From a virus (taxonomy: Duplodnaviria; Caudoviricetes): DNA of 64,000 bases. The position numbers and the translations under genes were made by a program. The DNA is taken from positions 32,001 to 96,000 of the IMG/VR virus record IMGVR_UViG_3300021255_000152; one strand, given 5' to 3'. The notes beneath the pieces are model-generated. The model saw only the letters and a list, made by a program, of their open reading frames with translations. It had not been told where the DNA came from and did not search any database. Positions 33,226 to 46,890 of this stretch are shown piece after piece; within the stretch, counting starts at the first letter, position 1; each line of letters begins with the position of its first letter.

Positions 33226-33260
33226 GGGCAAGTTAAATTAACTTGCCCTTTTTCTTTTTT
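33226..33260 (+). terminator. Rho-independent terminator-like hairpin overlapping a GGGCAA motif
   Basis: GGGCAAGTTAA-A-TTAACTTGCCC plus T-runs. Confidence 0.6.
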
Positions 33261-33290
33261 ATATTTATTGATATATGAAGGAGGTTACTT

Positions 33291-33923
33291 ATGATACAAT
33301 ATAATAATGATAAAGTCGTAGATGCGGATTTAGACGCACTTAAATTATTAATGCTAGATACTATTTATCCAGTAGGATCTATCTATATGAGTGTCAATAA
33401 TGTTTCTCCTTCTACTTTATTTGGTGGAACATGGGAAGCTATTCAAGATAGATTTCTTTTGGCGGCGGGTGAGAGTTATAGTGGCGGAACGACTGGCGGT
33501 AGTGCAAAGCATACCCCCAGCGGTACCTTAAGTGGTGGTGCAGTTGGAAATCATACTCTAACTGTGGCTGAAACACCTGCTCATACACATACTAGAGGTA
33601 CCATGAATATTACTGGTGCATTTCGTGTTGATTTTGGTGGATCAGGATGATGTGCTGTTCGTAGTAGAAGTGGTGCATTTGCTGAGACTAATTCAGATAC
33701 TTCTGCTTGGATGAAGCAGGTTTCGTCAAGTGCAGTTGCTCCCCCTTCTGATGGTAAACAAACAGCAACATTTGATGCATCTCGTTCATGAACAGGTGAA
33801 ACTTCATCTGTTGGTAGTGGTGGAGCACATGATCACCCATTCACGCAACCTACTTTTAAAGGCACAAGCCAAAATACACTTCCACCATATTTAACTGTTT
33901 ATATGTGAAAGAGAGTTGATTAA
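33291..33923 (+). CDS. Baseplate wedge gp10 C-terminal / tail-collar-like protein, 210 aa under code 4
   Basis: YPVGSIYMS..P..LFGGTWE, HxH motifs, FDASRS-W(TGA)-TGETS and terminal LPPYLTVYM-W(TGA)-KRV. Confidence 0.85.
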
Positions 33924-33924
33924 T

Positions 33925-35061
33925 ATGGCTATTCAAATTAAAAATGATAATGTATTAATTGGCCATATTAATGATTTACAAAGTTCAATAAATAGTTTGG
34001 ATAGTAGAGTAACTACTGTCGAGAATAAATTCGCGCAATACCTGCCTTTAACGGGTGGGGGGCTTACAGGTAATCTTTCTGTTGGAGGAGTAATAACTGG
34101 AAAACTAGATGGGGCAGCTAGATATTTAACAAGTCCTGATACTAGAAGTGTTGTTATAAACCCATCAGATATTATTGCTTCTGAAAATGGGGTAAGATTT
34201 GATTTTAAATCTTCATCAACCATTGGATTATCTTCTAGTCCTGCTTATAGTGGAGTTATGACTTATAGACCTTATAGTAAAAACAGTGACTGATCAGGTG
34301 GCCCAGCTCATCAAATAGCTTTTAATGCAAATGGTTTATATTGAAGAAAAAGTTCTGGAGATACAACATGAGCTGATTGATATACTATTTTAGACAGTAA
34401 TAATTATACTTCTTATTATCCCACAGGAGTCAAAGACTATAATAATGGAAATACCATTACTTTTGGTTATTCTACTTCTGGAATGTCTTCAACATCTTGA
34501 TTAGGTTCTTGAGATGGTTATAAGTTAAGAGCAATAGCACCTAATGTATTAACAGTTAAATCAGCTTATACTTTAACTATTTCTCACGGTAATGAAATAA
34601 GATTTAATAACAATAGTAGTGCTAGTTCGCTTTGATTTAATTATTTAAGAGAAGATGGTAATACTTGTAACGTGACTTCATTTTACTGAGGAAATGGTAA
34701 TAAAGGAGCTAGTGCAACAATGGTTGCAGGATCTTTTTCTACTTCGAGTTCTAAAAAAATAAAAGAAAATATTTCGGACATGTCAGAAGAAGAAGCTTCT
34801 AAAATATTAAACATAGGAATAAAATCTTTTGATTATAAAGAGGGATTTGGAGAAAAAAATCAATTTGGATGTATTGCAGAAGATATATACAATGAAATTC
34901 CTTCTGTTGTACATATTCCAGATGAATATAATGAAGATACTCCTTTAGAAGAAAACAATATTGGTTTTCCTTCTATTGATTATTCTAAATTTGTTCCATA
35001 TATTATTAAAATGATTCAAATTCAACAAAAAGAAATAAATGAATTAAAAGGAGATCGATAA
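33925..35061 (+). CDS. Tail fibre/receptor-binding protein with pyocin-knob-like region and C-terminal peptidase S74 chaperone, 378 aa under code 4
   Basis: YLPLTGG.LTG; LY-W-RK...T-W-AD-W-YTILDSNNY (all TGA); SSKKIKENI..FDYK..GCIAED..IDYSK..coiled coil. Confidence 0.8.
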
Positions 35062-37043: not shown

Positions 37044-37454
37044 ATGATAGATATTTATTCAAAAAACGTAACAGTGGGCGCGAACAGCACAATTCCATTA
37101 AATACAGTTGCCTTATTGAAAGGTACAAGCACACAACCACTAGGTGCAGGTTCTATACAGTTTAATAAATGTGGAATTTACCAAGTAACAGTGTCAGGTA
37201 GTGTAGTAGGTAGTGCTGCTGGAGAAATTGAAATTCAATTAGAGAAAGATGGCGTTGCACAGCCTCAAGCAATTTCTTTAATTACTGCTGCTGATGCTAC
37301 AAGTAATATACCTTTTAGCTTTACTACTTTAGTTCAAGTACCAGACAACAATAATGTTTGTTGCCCTTGCGCGCAAACCACTGTAATTTCTTTAAGAAAT
37401 GCTGGTATTGAAGCAACTTATTCAACAATTGATGTAAATGTAGTTAGAATCTAA
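37044..37454 (+). CDS. Beta-sandwich protein (BclA C-terminal/C1q-like), 136 aa
   Basis: GGGAGG RBS; IPL......G.Y.V.VS.......I.L..DG pattern; VCCPC insertion. Confidence 0.55.
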   Translation: MIDIYSKNVTVGANSTIPLNTVALLKGTSTQPLGAGSIQFNKCGIYQVTVSGSVVGSAAGEIEIQLEKDGVAQPQAISLITAADATSNIPFSFTTLVQVPDNNNVCCPCAQTTVISLRNAGIEATYSTIDVNVVRI

Positions 37455-37468
37455 TAGGGAGAATCCAT

Positions 37469-38038
37469 ATGACAGTAGAAGATGTTTTTGCTGAAGTAAA
37501 TGCGCATATGATTCAAGGACTTATGGTTCATAGTCAAATGGCTAATTATTATGGATTTTTAGGTTTAAAAGGATATTCTAAATGTCATTTATACCATTAT
37601 TGAATGGAAGGAAAATGTCATGTTAAGTTAATGGAATATTATTTTAAATATCATAATAAACTTATTAAAGATATGCCAGTAGAAGATCCAAAATTAATTC
37701 CTAAATCTTGATATAATTATGAGATGAAAGATGTTGATATAACTACAAAGCGCAATGCTGTAAAGGCTGGTATGGAAAAATGGGTTGAATGAGAAGAAAA
37801 TACTGTAAAAACTTTTAAAAAAGCATATAAAGATTTACTTTCTCTTGGAGCAGTTGAAGATGCTAATTATATTATGAATTTATTAGAAGAAGCTAGAGAA
37901 GAGTTAAGTGAAGTAAAATATTGACATATGATGAAAATTGCACAAGATTTTGAAATCGGACCAATTTTAGCTGAACAAGATAAAAAACAGCATAAATATA
38001 AGAAAAAAATTCATAAGCATTGTTGCTGTTGTGAATAA
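37469..38038 (+). CDS. Ferritin-like four-helix protein with HKHCCCCE tail, 189 aa under code 4
   Basis: Absent from the track because of 4 TGA. H..M..YY.FLGL.GY..CH.YHY..E..H, W.EWE..T...Y..L...G...A..I..L.E...EL ferritin-like spacing. Confidence 0.65.
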
Positions 38039-38043
38039 AAAAT

Positions 38044-38075
38044 GGGAACGCTTATTGCGTTCCCTTATTTTTTTT
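38044..38075 (+). terminator. Rho-independent terminator
   Basis: GGGAACGC-5nt-GCGTTCCC plus T-run; overlaps a TGTTATAAT extended -10 upstream of ycaO. Confidence 0.7.
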
Positions 38076-38104
38076 GTTATAATCTATTTAAGGAGATTGT
38101 CCTA

Positions 38105-39865
38105 ATGAATAAAGAAATTTTAGACTATAAATATAAAGAAAGAACTCCAACGGAAACAGTACAAATTATAAAGGATTTTTTTGAGAAAAAAGGATTTACT
38201 CTTGACTTAGAACATGAAGGTGCTTCAGAGGCTGGAACATATAGTTGCCATATTAAATTATTTTTTGAGGGTGACTTTATTATGTTTTCTAATGGAAAGG
38301 GTGCTACTCGAGATTTAGCTTTAGCTAGCGGATATGCAGAAATGTATGAACGTTTTTGTAATGGTATGAAATCTTTTACTCAGAAAAATTTCTATCATAA
38401 AGTTAAAGAAGTTTGTGAAAAAACTTTTGGATATAAAATTCATCCTCAAGAAAAACAATTAACTTATGAACAAGCCGTATTAGAAGAAAACAATGTTAAT
38501 AATTATTATTCTGTAGTAAGTAATTACAATGAGAAAATTAAAGAAAGAATTGCCAGAACATTAACAAATGATGAATTTATTGGATTACCTTATAAAAATG
38601 TTTTAACTAATGATATAAAATATATTGACCCACAATTAGTTTTAAGATTTGACAATAGTACAGGTATGTGCGCAGGTAATACTTATGAAGAAGCTTTTAA
38701 TGAGGGATTTTCTGAAATATTAGAACGATATTGCTATATTGATTTATTTGGTTCAGAAGGATTAGAAAAATATCATGTTGTAGATTTAACTAAAATAGAA
38801 AATGAGATATTGCGCGAAAAAGCTGAAAATATTAAAAAAGCGGGATATGATTTTTATTTAGTAGATATGTCTTATGAATATGGATTACCTGTTGTTATGG
38901 GACTTTTGGTCAATACTAGAGATCATTTTTGCAGACTTAATTTTGGTAGTTTTCCTATTTTTGAAGTTGCAGCAATGCGCACAATAACAGAAGCATATCA
39001 AAATGTAGATTCTTTTAAAAAATATGAAGATTTAATTCAAGTTCCAGCAGAGAAAAATTTTAACCTTAGTGCATTTTTAAAAGAAAATGGTACTGGATTA
39101 TCTGCTGCTGCTTTTGCGCCAGCTCATTTTTTCACTAGAATTGAACAAATTGATTCTTATAATAAAAATTTTTATATGGACGTTAATTCTACTCCTAAAG
39201 AAATTTATGAATATTATATGCATTTTATTGCAGAGAATGATTTAAATGTTTGGGTGATTGATAATAGTTTAATGAAAGAAGTATTTTCTTTGCATATATA
39301 TGTAGATAATCTCTCTTATAGTTATCCAATGGATTATTTAGTTGAATATAACGATATTAATTATAGATATCTATTTGATCAAATGGAAATTATGAAGAAA
39401 TATGAATATATGATGTATGATATCTCTCCAAATTTTCAAGATATAGATCATTTTGATGTAGAAATTTTATTAGCAAAAGATATAGGCACAAGTTTAGTTA
39501 CATTATTAATGTATTCTCAAACAATCTATCCTTATTTTATTGATTTTGATCCATTTATAAGAATTGTTTTAGATATGGATGAATTAAATTCTGGTACAAT
39601 AGTACGAAAATATTGTTGGACTTTCCTTTTTCCTTATTGTAAAAGATATTATACAATTAGAAGATATGTAGATTCTAATTATTCTTATGAAGAAATGTTA
39701 CCAATTATGGAAAAATTAGGCATTAAGAATTTTTCTAAAGAGGAATATGAACATGCCGCAGATTTGAATTATTTATTGCGAAAAATTTTAATTGAACCAT
39801 GTTGGAATTATTATCATTCAGATAGATATGAAAAATTTTGCCTAGCATTAATAGAAAAAATATAA
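38105..39865 (+). CDS. ycaO: YcaO-family ATP-dependent peptide backbone-modifying enzyme, 586 aa
   Basis: AAGGAG RBS before ATG 38105. SNGKGAT..LALASGYAEMYER and STGMCAGNTYEEA..EG.SEILER ATP/Mg-binding motifs. No in-frame TGA. Confidence 0.9.
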   Translation: MNKEILDYKYKERTPTETVQIIKDFFEKKGFTLDLEHEGASEAGTYSCHIKLFFEGDFIMFSNGKGATRDLALASGYAEMYERFCNGMKSFTQKNFYHKVKEVCEKTFGYKIHPQEKQLTYEQAVLEENNVNNYYSVVSNYNEKIKERIARTLTNDEFIGLPYKNVLTNDIKYIDPQLVLRFDNSTGMCAGNTYEEAFNEGFSEILERYCYIDLFGSEGLEKYHVVDLTKIENEILREKAENIKKAGYDFYLVDMSYEYGLPVVMGLLVNTRDHFCRLNFGSFPIFEVAAMRTITEAYQNVDSFKKYEDLIQVPAEKNFNLSAFLKENGTGLSAAAFAPAHFFTRIEQIDSYNKNFYMDVNSTPKEIYEYYMHFIAENDLNVWVIDNSLMKEVFSLHIYVDNLSYSYPMDYLVEYNDINYRYLFDQMEIMKKYEYMMYDISPNFQDIDHFDVEILLAKDIGTSLVTLLMYSQTIYPYFIDFDPFIRIVLDMDELNSGTIVRKYCWTFLFPYCKRYYTIRRYVDSNYSYEEMLPIMEKLGIKNFSKEEYEHAADLNYLLRKILIEPCWNYYHSDRYEKFCLALIEKI

Positions 39866-39867
39866 AA

Positions 39868-39929
39868 AAAAGATGGAGAATTAGTCTTTAACCAAATCCC
39901 CTAGGATTGTGACTAATTCTCCATCTTTT
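39868..39929. terminator. Long inverted repeat, probable terminator between convergent ycaO and the radical SAM operon
   Basis: AAAAGATGGAGAATTAGTC (39868-39886) and GACTAATTCTCCATCTTTT (39911-39929), 19 bp perfect. Confidence 0.65.
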
Positions 39930-40129
39930 ATCATGTGTTTTATCCATATCTCATAAGAGAGCGGACGCATTTCATCAAGACGACGTGAATACTCAATTAA
40001 TTCTTCATCAGTAAATTCTTCTAAATACATTAAAATAAGACTTCGTATTTTTACTTCATCTTTTGGAATGCCAAAAAAGTAATTAATTGTTTCTTTTACA
40101 AACTCTTTTTGTTGATGACTAAGGCTCAT
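39881..40129 (-). CDS. Small acidic helical protein, 82 aa (paralogue of 40628-40837)
   Basis: GAGGTG RBS; F..E...YF..I......R...L.Y.....TD...I..S pattern. Confidence 0.65.
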   Translation of the reverse strand: MSLSHQQKEFVKETINYFFGIPKDEVKIRSLILMYLEEFTDEELIEYSRRLDEMRPLSYEIWIKHMIKDGELVTILGDLVKD

Positions 40130-40628
40130 TTTTATTCACCTCTTTTATAAATTTTAATAAAAAATCTTTTCCATTTAAAGCTAAAATTGATAAAAATACA
40201 CAATAGGCACTAGTTCCAGTTATTCCTATATCCTGTTCATTTACATTTGTAGCTCAATGAAGAGTATAATTTGCAGAAAATATATTCGATATACATCATG
40301 GATATTGATACTCTTCATCTACTGCTGCAATAACAATATTATTATTTGCTAATTTTATTCATTTTTTTATATCTACTTTTTCAAAAGCAATTGGAACGCA
40401 AATAATAGAATTTTTTATATTAAAATCAATATTAGCTTCATCCATAAAAGTAATTTTTATATTATTTTTTAAATAAGGATAAAATTCATTTTTAAACAAA
40501 TTTAAAATTATCTCTTTATGAAAATTATCTTTATCTATTAAAATAATTTGTTGATTAAAATTATCTAAGGGGATGAGTTTTTGGAATAATTTATCTGTTG
40601 CTAAAAAAGATTCTGATGTTGTTAGCAT
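40119..40628 (-). CDS. Hypothetical protein, possibly a minimal S8/subtilase-like peptidase, 169 aa under code 4
   Basis: Track ORF 40359-40628 extends through 3 TGA to TAG 40119. Ordered IILID, H, IVIAA...YP and GTSA motifs. Confidence 0.45.
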
Positions 40629-40837
40629 TAGCCGTTAATTTCAATATCACTATTTGTACTTTCAGAAGTCTCTGGTTTAACATTAGAGCCTAAAATATTA
40701 CTAATAGCAATAATTTGATCATCAGTTAAAAGACCTCTATCAATGTATGTTAATGTCATTTGACGAGCATTAGTTTCATCAATTTGCGCAAAATAACACA
40801 AAGATTCAAAAATAAACTGTAAAGCAACTTGACTCAT
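40628..40837 (-). CDS. Small helical protein, 69 aa (paralogue of 39881-40129)
   Basis: GGAGG RBS; TAA/ATG coupling with the next gene. Confidence 0.65.
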   Translation of the reverse strand: MSQVALQFIFESLCYFAQIDETNARQMTLTYIDRGLLTDDQIIAISNILGSNVKPETSESTNSDIEING

Positions 40838-40838
40838 A

Positions 40839-41804
40839 TTATTTTCCCTCCATTATTTGATCGCAGTAAGAACAATGTCAGCATTCTCCTTTGCAATTTC
40901 TTCTATATAAAAGTCATTTTTGAGGATACTTTATTTGTTCCTCTGGATTTAGATAAATACAAGAACCAGAAATACAATCTAATAAATATGTTGGATTAGT
41001 TCTTGTTGCATAATATTTTAAAATTTTAGATATTTTTTCTGTAGGTAAAGTTCTATCTTCTAGCTTGAATCCATTAAAATATTGATTATAATAATCTAAT
41101 TCTTCTGGTAAAATAAATGGTCCTTTTAATCAATTATGAGTAAATTGATCGGTTAAAAGATTAAAAGTTTCTCTTATTTCAAAAGTATCATTTTCTTTTC
41201 AAGAAGAATTATTTGAACAATATGCGTTTTGATGCCAATAATATAATGGACAATTTATCCTACAAATACTATTTACAATTGTTGAATATTTTATTGAAGT
41301 TTGAGATGTTAAAATTTTTAACATATCCTCATTTCTATTTAAGTCTTGTGGCAAACATATTTCTTGAATATACCCAAGCTTTTCTATTTCTTTTATTTTA
41401 TTTAAATCTTTAATACCAGATAAAATACTTAATCGAATTTTTAAATTAGGAAAATTTATGTATATTCAATGTGCTAAAATTGGATCAGCTACGACTACGC
41501 CAAAAAGTCCAAAAGAACATAGTTTTTTTATATTTTGGCGTAAAATTGTAAGATTATAATTAGAATAATCTATCTTTGAAGAATTTAGAACGACCATTGG
41601 TTTAATATCATATTGATTCATTGTTTGACATAGATAAGATATTATTTCATTATATTTTTCAATATTTGGATAATCGTTTTGTCTAGCACTAGGAAATATA
41701 TCTGGATGTAGTGGAAAGTATATTTCAGAAATATATTTAGAGTATTTTTTATATAAATCTAAAACTTTTAAATCTAAATTAAAGGGGACTTGTAATTTTT
41801 TCAT
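40839..41804 (-). CDS. Peptidase U32-family (Fe-S, probable O2-independent hydroxylase-type) protein, 321 aa under code 4
   Basis: VVLNS, GVVVADP, IRLS, DLNRN, IVNSICRINCP..WH, LKGPFILPEEL, FKLEDR, terminal CKGECWHCSYC. 5 TGA read through. Confidence 0.75.
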
Positions 41805-42892
41805 TCTTTAAACTCCATTTTATTACTGGCATGAATAGAAAAAATTATTTTATTATTTATTAGAGTTTCTTCTCTAAGATGCTTTTTTAAAACTTTTAAG
41901 CATCCATCATAGAAAGTTTTATTATAAGCACATTGAGCCAAATCTTTATGATATTCTTTTCCTATAAATCCAGTAAAAGGACACTTTCCTCTACATGTTA
42001 TGACATACTTACAATGCTTACAATCTTCTAATTGTTGCTGACGGGTGTTTCTTAAAATATTGCGAAATTCCGATTGTTCAATTTTTTGTTTAAGATTTTC
42101 TTTATCCGTAAATACATTTGCCATACATGTTTCATCGCTTCAAGGCTTTCCGCATGAATAAACGCCGCCATCTGGATGAATTCCATATCAATGTCCAACG
42201 CAATTTTTTCCTTCACAAAAGAACAATTCTTTTCCTTCAATATAAGAAAGTATTTCATCAAAAGGTCTGTCTAAATCATCTGTTTCTGTAATGCATATAT
42301 AATCAAATAATTCAACCATTCTTTTGGCTAATTCAATATGGTCTTCAATCGTTAATCCAATTCCAAAAGCTGTATTAAAAATTAGATTAAACTCATTATC
42401 TCGCGCAAATTGATAAGATTCAATAATTCTCTTACTATTCTCTGGAGTCATTGTAAAAATAGCATTTACAACAACTCCTTTTTCTTTTCCTCGTTGCATT
42501 AATTCAAAGAAATTTCTTGAACCTCTAGATATATTATTATCAATACCATCCCAAGAACTTCCTATGTTTATTTGCAATTTTTTAAAATAATCTAATCAAG
42601 CATCATTTATTAATGTTCCATTTGATTGAAAAGCTCAATTAATAGGTTTATCGGAAAAATGTTGTGTTACATTTTTAAAATAATCAAGTCCTAAAATTGA
42701 AGGTTCCCCTCCATGTCAAATAATTTCTCAAGACTCATTTGGATCAATAGCAATTATATTTTCAAGTGCTTCAATAGCTTGTTCTTGGGTCATTTCTAAA
42801 GGATGTTCTGCATCTCGATTATTTTTTTCATAACAATAAGTGCATTTTAAATTACATCTATATGTTGGTTTAAATATTACTGTATTTGACAT
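41774..42892 (-). CDS. Radical SAM/SPASM maturase (rSAM-C), about 372 aa under code 4 (ends 41801 if the last TGA is a stop)
   Basis: AGGAGG RBS; KPTYRCNLKCTYC, II-W-HGGEP, QSNGTL, SSWDG; SPASM cysteines C..C / I.PDG.VY.C / CKHC.....C.G.C / C. Confidence 0.9.
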
Positions 42893-44210
42893 AATCTTTT
42901 TGTAGTTCCTCCTTTAAGTATGCTGGCATATATAATTGCTGAATTAAATATTGTTTTAAAGTAGGATTTAATTTAACAAATTCTTTTGGTGTTAAATTTC
43001 CTAATTTATCATAAATATATGGGACAATAGCTTTTCAAAATTTACATTGTGCAGAATATGGCTTTAATCCTTTTGATTCTTTTAAAGAACAATTCAAACA
43101 GCCTTGACCGCAAACAGGAAGATAATCACAGTTTAAACATTGATTTTGTATTTGAGTTTGTTTTAGTTGTTGTAATTTTAAGCTTTTATCTCCATTAAAG
43201 AAATCTTTAATTGAATTAAGCTCATCTATATTGCAAACATGCATTTCTTCAATACTTGTGTCATCACATCTATATAATTCACCATCTGCGTTAATACAAA
43301 TACGATTTGAATATAAGCAATTATCTAAATTGCATATCTCAGCAGAACGATTTAATGCTCGACGTATATAAGCGAGAGCAGATCGTTCTGGAACTCTTGG
43401 ATTATTATCATATATAAAAAATTCTAAATATTTTTTATACTCTTGGATAAATTCATCTATATCTAAGAATTTTTCTAATGGATTATTAGTAGTACCAAAT
43501 ACTGCATTAAAACTAAAAGGAACTCCATTATCAGAAGCCTTTTTAGAATCTGCAATTAAATTTTTAACATTTTGTTTAGTAATTACAGATATTATAAAAT
43601 AAAAATTAGATAATTTTTCTTGAGATAATTCATATCCTCTACATTGCTGCCCACTTCAGTCATAACTGGTTCCAATAGGAACATTATATTTATCTAAAAG
43701 ATATTTTCATTCATCATCTAAAAGAGTTCCATTACTTTGTGCATTAAAAATTAATTTTATATCTTCTTTAATAGCATATTTATACATTTCTAAACAAACA
43801 TCATCAAATCATTGTTTATCTACTGTTAAGAACTCTCCTCCATGTCAAGTTCATTCGATTTTTGAATAACCTTCTTCATTTAATAATCTAAGTAATCTTA
43901 AAATGCGCTCTTTTGATAAAACCATTCTTGGTTTTTGCTGATTTTTTTTATCAAAACAATAAATACAGTTTTGATTACAAAAATTTGTCACTTTACAAAT
44001 AACTTCACAATTATTATAACAATGATGATCGTTTCAATCTCCTTGGAATGTTTTTTCTGAATCCTTTTTTCCCAAAAGAACTTGTAGATATTCGTTTTTT
44101 AATAAAGAGTAATAATTTTGAATTCCTTCTTCTGTAGTTTCATCAATAACTTGATTAAAGTCAATGTTTGGAAGATAATTATCAAAATCTATATAATCAC
44201 TATATTTCAT
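42870..44210 (-). CDS. Radical SAM/SPASM maturase (rSAM-B) with about 70-aa N-terminal extension, 446 aa under code 4
   Basis: GGAGG RBS; KVTNFCNQNCIYC, E-W-T-W-HGGE, QSNGTLL; SPASM C....C / INADGELYRC / CLNC.....CGQGC / C. 7 TGA. Confidence 0.9.
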
Positions 44211-44598
44211 TGAAACCTCCTATATAATGAATAAAATCATTATCTTGTTTATTTTCTTGTGGAGATTTTAAAATATAAATAGTTAATTTATTTTCAATAC
44301 AATATTGAATTATCACATTGATATATTGTAAGGGATAATCTTTAGAAAGGTCAAAGATAACACCACCATTTATAATATCTATATTATTAATTAAATTTTC
44401 AACAGAAGTTTTTGTTATTTTTGTAAAAAGATAATATAAATCAATTCTAGAATCTCAATTATTAGCAATAAATCTTTTTTTAAAAAATTCTGGAATTATT
44501 TTATCTTCAAAAGATAAAGCTATCTTGCATTCTTCTGTTTTGTCGAAAACATGACGAATATTTTTATAAATATCTTTATCATATTGAAAAATTTTCAT
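44200..44598 (-). CDS. Hypothetical protein in the radical SAM operon, 132 aa under code 4
   Basis: ATG 44598 two bases after the upstream stop; one TGA; TAG 44200 overlaps the rSAM-B start region. Confidence 0.6.
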
Positions 44599-44600
44599 AA

Positions 44601-45782
44601 TTAATCTCCTGTTCCTAAATATGTAAGTAAATCTTGAATATCAATAATTTTTTGATTTTCAATAAATTCATCTACTCCTCCACCAGTAGAATAATTTGGG
44701 TTATTTCCTGTTCTTAAATTATAAGCTGTTGATGTTCCTTGGCGCATTTGAAGAATATCTTCCCATGTAATAATGGTAAAATTAGAAACTACTGGACTAT
44801 TTGTAAAAGTAACAGTAGTTTGACCCATTGCAGTGAGAACTTTATTTACTTCTCCTTGTACCTGATCTTCATTTGGTTTAGTATAATAGTCAGTATTTCA
44901 AGTAGGAGCTGTATAGTGATAAATTCTAATTGGAGAAGAGACTGCGGCATAAGTGGTTTCGTATGCGGTTGTATCTTGTCTAACATTACTATAACCAGTA
45001 CCATTATTTGATGCAGTAACTGCATTGGTAGCATGATTTTCAATATGATGATAAGTTCAGCCATTTCCTGAAGGAATAGCACTCCAACTACCATTATCAT
45101 AAACAGTAACACCAATTTTATACCAACCAGCGGTTAATGAAGTAGCTGTTCAAGTATAAGAGGTTGAAGTCTGTTCTGATAATAAGGTCCAATTTCCATA
45201 AGTACCGTTTTGGGTAGCACAATATTGATAATATATACGAAATTTTGTGGCTGTGCTAGTATTATCATCAGAATATATTAATGATGTTAATATAATTTTT
45301 ATAGATTTGCTGTTATAATATCTAGAATTTGCAAATGTTGAACCAGATACTTGAGGTGCTTTATTGGTAGTGTTTGTTGGAGTTCTTCCAGTTTCTACTG
45401 TTGTATTAACTGCTGCAGTGTTGGTGTGATTATTATATCCAGTATTTCTATGGTTACTATATCCACTATTTGTATGGTTATTATATCCGCTTTTAGTATA
45501 TCCACCATTGTTTGTGTGGTCATCATAACCTCTGTCGTTATGATTTGCGTATCATCCATCATTCATAGTTCATCCAGAACTTCTTCTATCGGTATGATCG
45601 TCACTACCGCTATTTCTATGGTTGCTATAATTTCTATGGTTATTATATCCAGTATTTCTATGGTTATTAGCACCAGACTGAGAATAATTATTATAACCTG
45701 ATTGACGATATGCAGAATTTGTATGTCTATAATTTATTCTATATCCATTGGTATGAACCGCTTTTTGATGAGATTTAATCAT
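44601..45782 (-). CDS. Candidate substrate/precursor: N-terminal (S/T)GY-x-N-H-x-N repeats, Ig/FN3-like domain, C-terminal helical domain; 393 aa under code 4
   Basis: GAAAGGAG RBS, ATG 45782, in frame with track ORF 44601-44828. 5 TGA. 11 H-x-(N/D) and 7 Y-x-(N/D)-H motifs in the first about 122 aa. Confidence 0.8.
45417..45756 (-). repeat. Degenerate 24-nt coding tandem repeats (8-aa unit)
   Basis: AACCATAGAAATACTGGATATAATAA occurs twice, with further degenerate copies encoding xGYNNHRN / xGYSNHRN / xGYDDHTN. Confidence 0.8.
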
Positions 45783-46734
45783 TTTCTTTCTCCTTTCTAT
45801 ATCCAAGACAGGCGCAATAAAGTCCCGTTCGAGCATGTCTTGGACAAGATAAGCATTCTTTTTGAGGCGGAGTTTTTCTTAGAGAATCTTCTTCCGCATG
45901 AAGTAAATCTAATATTTCATCAAAAGTTTCAAACTCTGATAAAGCATGTTTGAACTTGTTGCATCCAAAACAACCAATAATATCTAATTCTGGCGTAACA
46001 TCTAAGGCAGAACCATCACAAGCAAAACTTCCAAAAAATGATGGGTCTATCTTCATAGCAAATGCAACGAAATCATCGTCATATGCGCAAATAGGCGGAT
46101 TATTACAATCGCAAGAAAATGTTACATTATATTTGGTTGCCCAAGTCAGCATTTCTTTTAATATAGGTTGAAATTCATGAAAATACTGTTTAAAATTAAA
46201 ATCTTTAGATAATTTCATATTTGGTACAGTAATTGACCATCTAATATCAGAAATATTATATTTTGCAATAATGTCTTCCCAAAAGCTCATATCTTGATGC
46301 GGATCAAAAATATTAATACTAATACGACTTACAGCATTTGGAATGCATAAAGAAAGATAGTCTAAATTACGTTCTATCGTAGGAAGAAATTGCGGATTAT
46401 TGTTAATATTTGGTAAAAATTCAATAAAAATTTCATCACTATATTCCACAATTTTTTGAGCAAATTCAAAAGAAAATGAAAAATTAGAAAAAACTAACAC
46501 GGAAGAAAAACAATCATAAGAAATTATAATATCTAATAAATCAAAAAATTGCGGATGTAATGATGGCTCTCCTCCGATAAGTCTAACATTTTTTTCATTA
46601 TTTTGCTTTAAAAAATCTAAATATATTTTAAAGTTATCTAAATTTATATTTTTTACTGTATTTGTTTTCATTTCTGTTTGCGCGAAGCAATAAGGACAAT
46701 GAAAATTGCAATAAGTATTTATCATTAAGTTCAT
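45775..46734 (-). CDS. Radical SAM enzyme (rSAM-A) with C-terminal twitch/SPASM-like cysteines, 319 aa
   Basis: CNFHCPYC, LIGGEPSLHP, C...LDVTPEL.I.GCF, CLSC....C.C. No in-frame TGA. Confidence 0.9.
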   Translation of the reverse strand: MNLMINTYCNFHCPYCFAQTEMKTNTVKNINLDNFKIYLDFLKQNNEKNVRLIGGEPSLHPQFFDLLDIIISYDCFSSVLVFSNFSFSFEFAQKIVEYSDEIFIEFLPNINNNPQFLPTIERNLDYLSLCIPNAVSRISINIFDPHQDMSFWEDIIAKYNISDIRWSITVPNMKLSKDFNFKQYFHEFQPILKEMLTWATKYNVTFSCDCNNPPICAYDDDFVAFAMKIDPSFFGSFACDGSALDVTPELDIIGCFGCNKFKHALSEFETFDEILDLLHAEEDSLRKTPPQKECLSCPRHARTGLYCACLGYRKEKEND

Positions 46735-46752
46735 AGTCTATACCTCAATATA

Positions 46753-46781
46753 ATTCTATCAAAAAAAAACGCTTCTGTCAA
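46753..46781 (-). promoter_or_regulatory. Sigma-A/70 consensus promoter driving the radical SAM operon
   Basis: TTGACA-17 nt-TAGAAT with TG extension, 18 nt upstream of the rSAM-A ATG. Confidence 0.8.
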
Positions 46782-46890
46782 GACCTATTATGTTTAAAAA
46801 AAGGTCTAAAATAATTAATATTAAACGGCCAATTTATGTTAAAAGCCTTTTTGACTCTTTAAAATACAAGAGAGAGAAAGGAGAAGAAAT

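Follow-up and report, generated by a model that had tools for sequence, protein, structure and literature searches.

A repeat protein with triceptide-type motifs, encoded in gut phages among radical SAM genes whose products probably act on it

Triceptides are formed by 3-CyFE radical S-adenosylmethionine (rSAM) enzymes, which bond the aromatic ring of Tyr, His, Phe or Trp to the residue at position +2 with a change of -2 Da per motif; in MicA, the aromatic-X-X motifs cross-linked in this way are YSK, HAS and FTK (PMC12912966). In the HXS defence system (Li et al., Nat Commun 2026), HxsA, which carries a peptidoglycan-binding domain besides its five H-x-S repeats, is matured by two rSAMs, HxsB and HxsC, together with HxsD, its maturation comprising N-terminal processing and a shift of +8 Da (PMC13128918). 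In the Crp system of Methanococcus voltae, the SPASM rSAM CrpC installs ranthionine (thioether) cross-links on CrpA, a protein encoded next to it (PMC13692751). The maturation of whole proteins by rSAMs has been shown only recently, for HxsA in defence and CrpA in methanogens (both 2026), and no virus example was found in the literature. Here, we describe a gene located at 44601-45782, on the minus strand, of a 64,000-nt window (bases 32001-96000 of the 138-kb IMG/VR virus record IMGVR_UViG_3300021255_000152, with an estimated completeness of 79%). Its product, the 393-aa protein P0001, combines an N-terminal array of 8-residue repeats with a folded C-terminal part and is encoded within a tight minus-strand operon of rSAM genes lying 3' of the best promoter-like site of the region. 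Considering the gene linkage and the motif conservation described below, P0001 is likely to be a dedicated protein substrate of the surrounding rSAM enzymes.

Linkage was assessed in 11 loci covering 26-100% identity and both genetic codes (TGA read as Trp, or the standard code), from phages of ~70-250 kb and one prophage. The repeat gene adjoins radical-SAM genes in all 11, and the tie between repeat protein and rSAMs put forward in the initial annotation is thus borne out as genetic linkage. That no examined locus lacks rSAM genes is the strongest indication of a joint function of the repeat protein and these enzymes. Where the downstream flank is long enough, the loci contain two to three further rSAM/SPASM genes, and most of them a U32 or S8 gene; a complete gene set comprises rSAM-A and a half-barrel protein together with two or three SPASM paralogues and either a U32 or an S8 protein. 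Among the phages reading TGA as Trp, L003 (71% identity) repeats the whole operon, including a YcaO gene; L005-L007 (38%) show the order rSAM-A, repeat gene, 121-aa gene, rSAM, rSAM; and L008/L009 (~30%) encode rSAM-A, the repeat protein, products of 114-133 and 51-58 aa, two rSAMs and U32, an order shared by L010 (~36%). In the standard-code loci, the order is rSAM-A, repeat gene and 133-aa gene in L004 (30%); fibre-like protein, rSAM-A, repeat protein P0039, 137 aa, rSAM/SPASM, 57 aa and rSAM in L011; U32 C-terminus, repeat protein P0029 and rSAM pieces in L012; rSAM, repeat gene, small genes, three rSAMs and S8 protease in L002 (26%; contig of at least 106 kb); and S8, rSAM, 94 aa, repeat protein P0038 and three rSAMs in L013, a prophage in a complete 3.8-Mb chromosome.

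In most loci with upstream flank, rSAM-A is a neighbour of the repeat gene. It lies directly 5' of the repeat gene in the window and in L002, L003, L004, L006, L008/L009, L010 and L011, while in L013 one small gene separates the two and in L012 a U32-like C-terminus occupies the rSAM-A place. The overlap of both genes in the window (Table 1) and their single strong promoter-like site suggest that they are translationally coupled, which favours a substrate role.

The second line of evidence is the repeat motif. In residues 1-125 of P0001 we counted 11 H-x-[ND], seven Y-x-[ND]-H and five G-Y-x-[ND]-H-x-N motifs, compared with shuffle means of 3.1, 0.33 and 0.006, respectively, and none of 5000 shuffles attained the observed counts; the first two counts and the 8-residue period had been given exactly in the initial annotation. 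At the DNA level, the period corresponds to 24-nt tandem arrays at 45416-45499 and 45630-45676. Within residues 1-122 there are 19 [YH]-x-[ND] motifs, and the single Cys of the protein is residue 188, leaving the repeat array Cys-free.

These motifs are conserved across a family. A word-based search identified 18 relatives and an exhaustive HMMER search of 1.84 billion representatives (clusters at 50% identity) identified 31, all unnamed, metagenomic and of ~310-460 aa. Neither P0001 nor 14 relatives matched a family of Pfam, NCBIfam, PHROGs or PADLOC; against 50,697 GenBank phages, tblastn of P0001, P0038 and P0025 gave no match; and pattern scans of IMG/VR and GTDB genomes yielded no relative. 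Members share five parts, which are an N-terminal motif, repeats whose length and sequence are hypervariable, a Trp-rich centre, and the FN3 and C-terminal domains, these two being the best conserved. From 163 units of 28 proteins, the repeat unit reads (N/D)-(S/T)-G-(Y 98/C 65)-(S/D/N)-(N/D/T)-(H 80/Y 26/W 7)-(S/T)-(N/D). In these 28 members, [YC]-x-x-[HYW]-x-[NDQ] was counted 150 times, where 21 were expected. A lack of conserved Y/H and +2 N/D among homologues, named in the initial annotation as an outcome that would speak against modification, is not what is seen, as [HYWF]-x-[ND] is observed 359 times where 143 would be expected. In close variants (at least 71% identity, compared column by column), the x after His is changed in 7 of 9 columns, the first aromatic residue in only 1 of 7, and His in 3 of 9, always to Tyr; some of the +2 Asn are replaced by Arg or Lys.

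P0001 was modelled with AlphaFold2 from a 15-sequence alignment. In this prediction of the candidate substrate alone, a check that had been proposed beforehand, residues 1-138 are predicted to be disordered (predicted local distance difference test, pLDDT, ~30), followed by a confident beta-sandwich at 140-245 (pLDDT ~90), completed by a last strand at 285-287, and by a helix-rich domain at 295-393. VIA-align matched model residues 138-289 to a titin FnIII domain (Z 9.5, rmsd 2.7 A, 99 residues), followed by dozens of FN3 rows, so the domain previously described as Ig/FN3-like is, in the model, an FN3 fold. This domain of P0001 is unmatched by Pfam fn3 and other sequence models, Foldseek against PDB and BFVD returned only generic, weak FN3/Ig rows, and nothing usable came from ESM Atlas, whether searched by shape or by features, the C-terminal domain having feature scores <0.9. 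For the latter domain, a 27-sequence profile yielded nothing significant in PDB, and a second copy was not found in the phage. SPASM maturases require an extended substrate. Given that the repeat region is predicted to be disordered and the rest folded, the array would be accessible to such enzymes, which also favours the substrate reading. In family alignments, the N-terminal motif ends with H-(T/S)-N-x-G-Y. In P0001 it covers residues 1-22 (hydrophobic-x-hydrophobic ... H-T-N-G-Y) and is a candidate recognition (leader-like) element.

rSAM-A carries CxxxCxxC and, in the alignment, eight invariant C-terminal Cys with non-canonical spacing; it matches only generic cluster-binding regions of the viperin and MoaA models, and nothing beyond weak pVip-like matches, lying in the cluster-binding region, came from PADLOC. 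rSAM-B and rSAM-C, two paralogues with 26% identity (E 5e-21), have an invariant SPASM Cys motif. Their best NCBIfam matches are anSME, DynA, TIGR04083, AmcB, PapB, DarE/DarW, YhhB, GrrM/OscB, HxsB and XyeB, and their PDB matches are anSME, CteB and the cyclophane synthase ChlB. By these profile matches, both would belong to the peptide- and protein-modifying SPASM clade, outside every described family; a word search with rSAM-C recovered only that same phage family, a small one, without any named relative from bacteria. The acidic N-terminal extension of rSAM-B, of ~70 aa, is a candidate small partner or recognition module; it is a separate 51-58-aa gene in other lineages (11518-11694 in L008, 3700-3855 in L010 and 12467-12634 in L002). 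The orf132 product, the conserved half-barrel partner, is predicted to form a (beta-alpha)5 half-barrel (pLDDT 88) with generic TIM-barrel-like matches only (Z ~9), and was rejected as a leader binder of the RiPP (peptide made on ribosomes and then modified post-translationally) recognition element (RRE) or PqqD-like type on account of this fold and these matches. It shows no similarity to a 261-aa protein of L002.

Table 1. Features of the repeat gene, its cassette and flanking genes in the window
Feature	Position	Strand	Basis or remark
N-terminal motif, residues 1-22	45717-45782	minus	Best-conserved part of the N-terminal region in alignments; AlphaFold2 low-confidence strand 14-23
8-residue repeat array G-Y-x-(N/D)-H-x-(N/D)-(S/T), residues 23-122	45417-45716	minus	Motif counts, 24-nt period, pLDDT ~30
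Trp-rich centre, residues 68-80	45543-45581	minus	W71 and W77 both TGA, near-invariant in family
Thr/Asn-rich linker, residues 123-142	45357-45416	minus	Sequence and AlphaFold2
FN3-type beta-sandwich, residues 143-292, low-confidence loop 247-273	44907-45356	minus	AlphaFold2, VIA-align
Small helix-rich C-terminal domain, residues 293-393	44604-44906	minus	AlphaFold2 pLDDT ~75-90; no recognised family or fold
Promoter-like TTGACA-17-TAGAAT, extended TG	46753-46781	minus	Just upstream of rSAM-A; 11/12 consensus matches, best in region; consensus match only
rSAM-A, 319 aa, TGA-free	45775-46734	minus	Pfam Radical_SAM 1.1e-08; overlaps repeat gene start by 8 nt
orf132, conserved partner, 132 aa	44200-44598	minus	Trp48 = TGA; after repeat gene in most loci
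rSAM-B, radical SAM + SPASM, 446 aa, 7 TGA	42870-44210	minus	TIGR04085 39.5 bits vs cut-off 27
rSAM-C, radical SAM + SPASM (CX2CX5CX3C), 372 aa, 7 TGA	41774-42892	minus	Profile and paralogy to rSAM-B
U32-family protein, 321 aa, 5 TGA	40839-41804	minus	Pfam Peptidase_U32 5.2e-05, 23.1 bits vs cut-off 22.4
Three small conserved genes, 69, 169 and 82 aa	39881-40837	minus	169-aa product (orf169, 40119-40628) weakly S8-like
YcaO gene, TGA-free	38042-39865	plus	Converges on operon
Tail/tail-fibre genes	33243-35061		PHROG tail-fibre matches down to 1e-18
Endolysin, 825-aa frame	46891-49368	plus	GH25, two CW_7, weak NAGPA-like region; three TGA read-throughs
tRNA, anticodon UCA, 72 nt	50481-50552	plus	ARAGORN label SeC

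The same features can be read in another way, with the N-terminal array being an unmodified low-complexity region of a phage structural or adhesion protein, either metal-binding (with His, Tyr, Cys, Asn and Asp as ligands) or sticky and prion-like, and the rSAMs acting elsewhere, on a small cassette protein, a host protein or a non-protein substrate. The predicted disorder and the N/S/Y/G/H-rich composition agree with this, N, S, Y and G being typical also of unmodified low-complexity regions, and the interchange of Tyr and Cys at the first repeat position, with its C-x-x-H spacing, resembles metal sites and fits a metal-binding array as well. rSAM-A has only the generic matches mentioned above, and the curated cut-offs of characterised families, the peptide maturases included, are missed by all three rSAMs, so the reaction type cannot be read from homology. 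Of these observations, the composition, the fit of the Tyr/Cys interchange to a metal-binding array and the missed cut-offs also weigh against a substrate role for P0001, as do several others. The case is built on the linkage of the genes and the logic of the motifs; P0029 and P0014 have few canonical repeats; P0001 is far larger than triceptide precursors and has no recognisable RRE partner; and in L002, a large phage, the cassette lies among replication and metabolic genes rather than tail genes. We nevertheless consider an unmodified array unlikely. The linkage with three to four rSAM genes, including the gene overlap, persists across very divergent phages, and the periodic motif conservation exceeds what composition gives, not only in P0001, as shown above, but also in 18-21 of the 28 family members, where at most 1% of shuffles attain the observed counts. 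Moreover, SPASM enzymes of the rSAM-B/C clade act on peptides and proteins, and the other cassette proteins contain no core-like sequence, the small open reading frames (ORFs) being helical or alpha/beta and repeat-free.

If P0001 is indeed the substrate, its conserved N-terminal motif, perhaps with orf132 or the rSAM-B extension, would bring the disordered region to the enzymes. rSAM-A, rSAM-B and rSAM-C, with their auxiliary clusters, would then abstract a side-chain hydrogen and introduce intramolecular cross-links into every unit G-(Y/C)-x-(N/D)-(H/Y/W)-(S/T)-(N/D), and possibly also in the Trp-rich centre. The likeliest chemistry would be a triceptide-type bond from the aromatic ring to the beta-carbon of residue +2, with thioethers forming instead in relatives that have Cys for Tyr. 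The U32 protein, or the subtilisin-like S8 protein in Cys-type relatives, may add hydroxylation or proteolytic trimming, and the product would be a stiff, protease-resistant poly-macrocyclic arm carried on the FN3 and the small C-terminal domains. The initial annotation had envisaged two cyclophanes per repeat, possibly one per SPASM enzyme. Linkage and motif conservation support that interpretation in part, but this chemistry is only one of several possibilities, and the assignment of one site to each SPASM enzyme is a guess, considering that there are three Cys-rich rSAMs here and four in some relatives. Cys occupies the first position in 65 of the 163 units, for which a cyclophane model based purely on Tyr does not account. 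The Trp-rich centre and the N-terminal motif kept by the family had no weight in the initial interpretation.

The protease-type genes invite a different outcome, in which U32, S8 or the S8-like protein cuts off the modified repeats to release a free poly-cyclic RiPP, for example an antibacterial or a signal, with the FN3 and C-terminal domains acting as a large follower. Such a gene is present in every complete cassette, as S8 in L002 and L013 and as U32 plus the weakly S8-like orf169 here (orf169 against the central part of the L013 S8 protease: BLASTP E 0.028, 27% over 129 aa). U32 is also kept in L003, L008, L010 and L012. Furthermore, characterised triceptides are all cut just before the first cyclophane motif (PMC12912966), and HxsA undergoes N-terminal processing (PMC13128918). 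We regard P0001 as improbable in the role of such a precursor, since the FN3 and C-terminal domains are the best-conserved parts, which would be surprising in a follower that is discarded, the gene is located in the fibre/lysis region and the cassette has no exporter gene. The characterised U32 members, RlhA, TrhP and UbiU/V, are hydroxylation factors rather than proteases, which likewise argues against this role. Separately, the Cys-type cassettes, L002 and L013, were observed to have a full S8 protease and no U32, and the Tyr-type ones to have U32, in a small sample confounded by phylogeny.

The cassette of the window sits between the tail/tail-fibre genes and the endolysin. In L008/L009 and L010, its neighbours are Gp10_C, endolysin, holin and CHAP genes, and in L011 it is also found in a tail/lysis context. 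In L013, the order is LysM, YQBQ, DUF2577, sheath initiator, Baseplate_J, a gp48-like gene, two small ORFs, the cassette, holin and amidase, and the repeat protein is the only sizeable non-enzyme in the cassette slot, which we take to be the slot of the tail-fibre gene in PBSX-type elements. In addition, the repeat protein, rSAM-B, rSAM-C and the U32 protein are rich in TGA codons, resembling the tail genes of this phage, while rSAM-A is TGA-free. The gene position and this late-type codon usage suggest late synthesis of a product that either joins the tail/fibre apparatus or acts with it. The repeat protein matches no known fibre family in PHROG, Pfam or PDB, and a late, virion-associated role is plausible from its position. 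The earlier proposal that the folded part serves as a virion anchor fits the position next to tail-fibre and lysis genes. A fuller version of this picture, to which we give only tentative credence, is that P0001 is a virion (tail/fibre) protein displaying an exposed arm of 10-20 macrocycles, made by three rSAMs and an oxygen-independent U32 protein, on a scaffold that switches by lineage between Tyr/His carbon-carbon staples and Cys thioethers. As a separate observation, an 85-aa ORF of L013 (5547-5804), located between the gp48-like and S8 protease genes, has a D-F-N-R-I-E motif resembling three D-x-x-E-L-R helices in the C-terminal domain of Cys-type members, and the two may represent a shared fibre-attachment motif.

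Alternatively, the matured protein might not enter the virion and could act in or on the infected cell as an HXS-like effector, in superinfection exclusion or counter-defence. FN3 domains often bind cell-wall polymers, the L002 cassette lies outside the structural region, and HXS itself demonstrates that phage DNA entry can be blocked by a repeat protein that bears an anchoring domain and is matured by rSAMs (PMC13128918). Several features make such an effector quite unlikely, in addition to the heavy TGA load shared with tail genes. P0001 has neither a membrane segment nor a signal peptide, in agreement with the initial annotation: no hydrophobic N-terminal stretch is present, the maximum 15-residue Kyte-Doolittle mean in the first 75 aa being -0.93. 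The charge of the array is not conserved, being basic here and acidic in relatives. H-x-S is absent from residues 1-125 of P0001 and depleted across the 28 family members (5 observed against 30.6 expected). The HxsB model TIGR03978 scores 57.3 and 62.3 bits, far below its cut-off of 370, HxsC is absent among the 25 best matches listed per rSAM, and orf132 has no NCBIfam match at E <= 0.01 and therefore no HxsD match. As every membership feature tested fails, assignment of the repeat protein to HXS was rejected; the comparison with His-Xaa-Ser proteins drawn earlier holds as an analogy between rSAM-paired repeat proteins and does not extend to the H-x-S motif.

The gene call depends on stop-codon recoding. 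With TGA read as Trp, the repeat gene is a single 393-codon frame ending at TAA, and the coordinates and protein quoted initially match this translation, on the minus strand. Under table 11, the frame is broken by five TGA (codons 71, 77, 211, 242 and 295), and both this and the plus-strand readings of 44601-45782, which give fragments only, were rejected. A Shine-Dalgarno sequence, AAGGAG, lies ~8 nt 5' of the ATG at 45782, and homologues begin at the same Met. The assignment of TGA to Trp is well supported, since the window encodes a UCA-anticodon tRNA, homologues alternate between TGA and TGG in the family's conserved Trp columns (with TGG only in the standard-code L002 and L004), and many long window frames open only when TGA is read through. 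This alternation rules out TGA as any residue other than Trp, and the invariant Trp48 of orf132 is also encoded by TGA in this phage. The UCA tRNA is likely a Trp-inserting suppressor and would be needed to translate the repeat protein, rSAM-B, rSAM-C and the U32 protein; it lies immediately before a TGA-containing glycosyltransferase-like frame (50525-51253), whose start it overlaps. In the repeat gene, the first two TGA codons (45570-45572 and 45552-45554, minus strand) encode the near-invariant W71 and W77, and without suppression a 70-aa repeat peptide would result. As the standard-code L002, L004, L011 and L013 have TGG at both positions, TGA gating is not essential to the system. Stop-codon recoding conceals whole operons from standard annotation, and the cassette of the repeat protein is an example.

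With regard to the host, the CW_7 and GH25 domains of the endolysin point to a Gram-positive bacterium. Near-identical DNA was found in cattle and goat gut metagenomes of several studies, and this anoxic habitat suits oxygen-sensitive rSAM chemistry. Contigs from four gut metatranscriptome libraries (three studies; 37400-49400) cover the repeat gene and bridge its junction with rSAM-A; contigs in RNA libraries are no proof of transcription and were therefore not used as evidence. The YcaO gene was placed outside the cassette core because it recurs only in the closest relative, L003, and it is not present in the flanks of L002, L008, L010 and L013. It begins 3 nt after the gene for a 189-aa protein (4 TGA) with a basic tail followed by four Cys and Glu. 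This pair, also found in L003, spans 37469-39865 on the plus strand and may be a separate YcaO/substrate unit.

Cross-linking of the repeats, if it occurs, would bring phage proteins within the range of RiPP-type cyclophane or thioether chemistry, and phages would have a new route to harden and diversify a host-contacting part in the protease-rich, anoxic rumen. In that case, the cassette would also supply three new rSAM subfamilies with a multi-site, encoded and length-variable substrate, useful for enzymology and for poly-macrocyclic peptides. Should the fuller virion picture be true as well, P0001 would be the first protein of a virus particle to be covalently 'stapled', and would offer a natural platform on which poly-cyclophane peptides are displayed. 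Literature searches on phage-encoded SPASM/RiPP systems and on accession CP063353, the chromosome with the L013 prophage, yielded no account of the cassette.

Compared with known systems, the cassette resembles triceptides in its repeated aromatic-X-X3 motifs, accepting both His and Tyr, and in its SPASM-type rSAMs without an RRE; models of triceptide enzymes (XyeB, GrrM/OscB, FxsB, YhhB, AmcB, ChlB and MicB) are among the best profile matches of rSAM-B and rSAM-C. However, the cyclophane-forming models XyeB, GrrM/OscB, FxsB, YhhB and AmcB give only 39-53 bits for rSAM-B and 42-90 for rSAM-C, against cut-offs of 310-450, and instead of a short leader-core peptide the substrate would be a 393-aa protein with two confidently folded domains and up to 19 motifs, served by three to four rSAMs instead of one, phage-encoded, and with Cys for Tyr in many relatives. 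With HXS it shares a repeat protein with an anchoring domain, paired rSAMs with a small partner and His-centred triplets. It differs in having H-x-N/D within an 8-residue unit, 10-20 units instead of five, an FN3 and an unrecognised domain in place of the peptidoglycan-binding one, no export signal, and a distribution in phages of anaerobic gut hosts rather than Pseudomonadota chromosomes. Crp likewise has a SPASM rSAM cross-linking a large neighbour-encoded protein and is a plausible model for the Cys-type relatives P0017, P0035 and P0038, whereas CrpA is Cys-rich, unlike the P0001 array, CrpC has an RRE, and the system is archaeal, not viral.

Other SPASM systems are more distant. The cross-links of dynobactin, Trp-Asn carbon-carbon and His-Tyr nitrogen-carbon, draw on the same residue palette as the repeat protein, DynA is the second-best NCBIfam match of both SPASM paralogues, and the family keeps a Trp-rich centre. 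By contrast, P0001 lacks the W-x-W core of dynobactin and darobactin, with five residues separating W71 and W77, and is a protein rather than a 7-10-residue antibiotic; for rSAM-B and rSAM-C, the DynA model scores 74.3 and 110.3 bits against a cut-off of 450, and DarE 38 and 78.6 against 650. In the maturation of the quinohemoprotein amine dehydrogenase gamma subunit, the rSAM/SPASM enzyme QhpD makes several intra-protein cross-links in QhpC, and the subtilisin-like S8 protease QhpE removes the leader. The cross-linking of a structural polypeptide and the S8 protease, also carried by Cys-type cassettes, are points in common, while the QhpD model scores 49 bits, its cut-off being 453, no dehydrogenase context is present and the substrate architecture is different. 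Membership of anSME was rejected (TIGR03942, 81.5 and 116.9 bits against 349.45, with no sulfatase gene nearby), and a single S-S-P-I-R inside an FN3 strand, resembling the sulfatase motif C/S-x-P/A-x-R, was taken as chance. In type, the system would be an rSAM-matured repeat protein with triceptide-type motifs, and what is new is its carrier, a phage.

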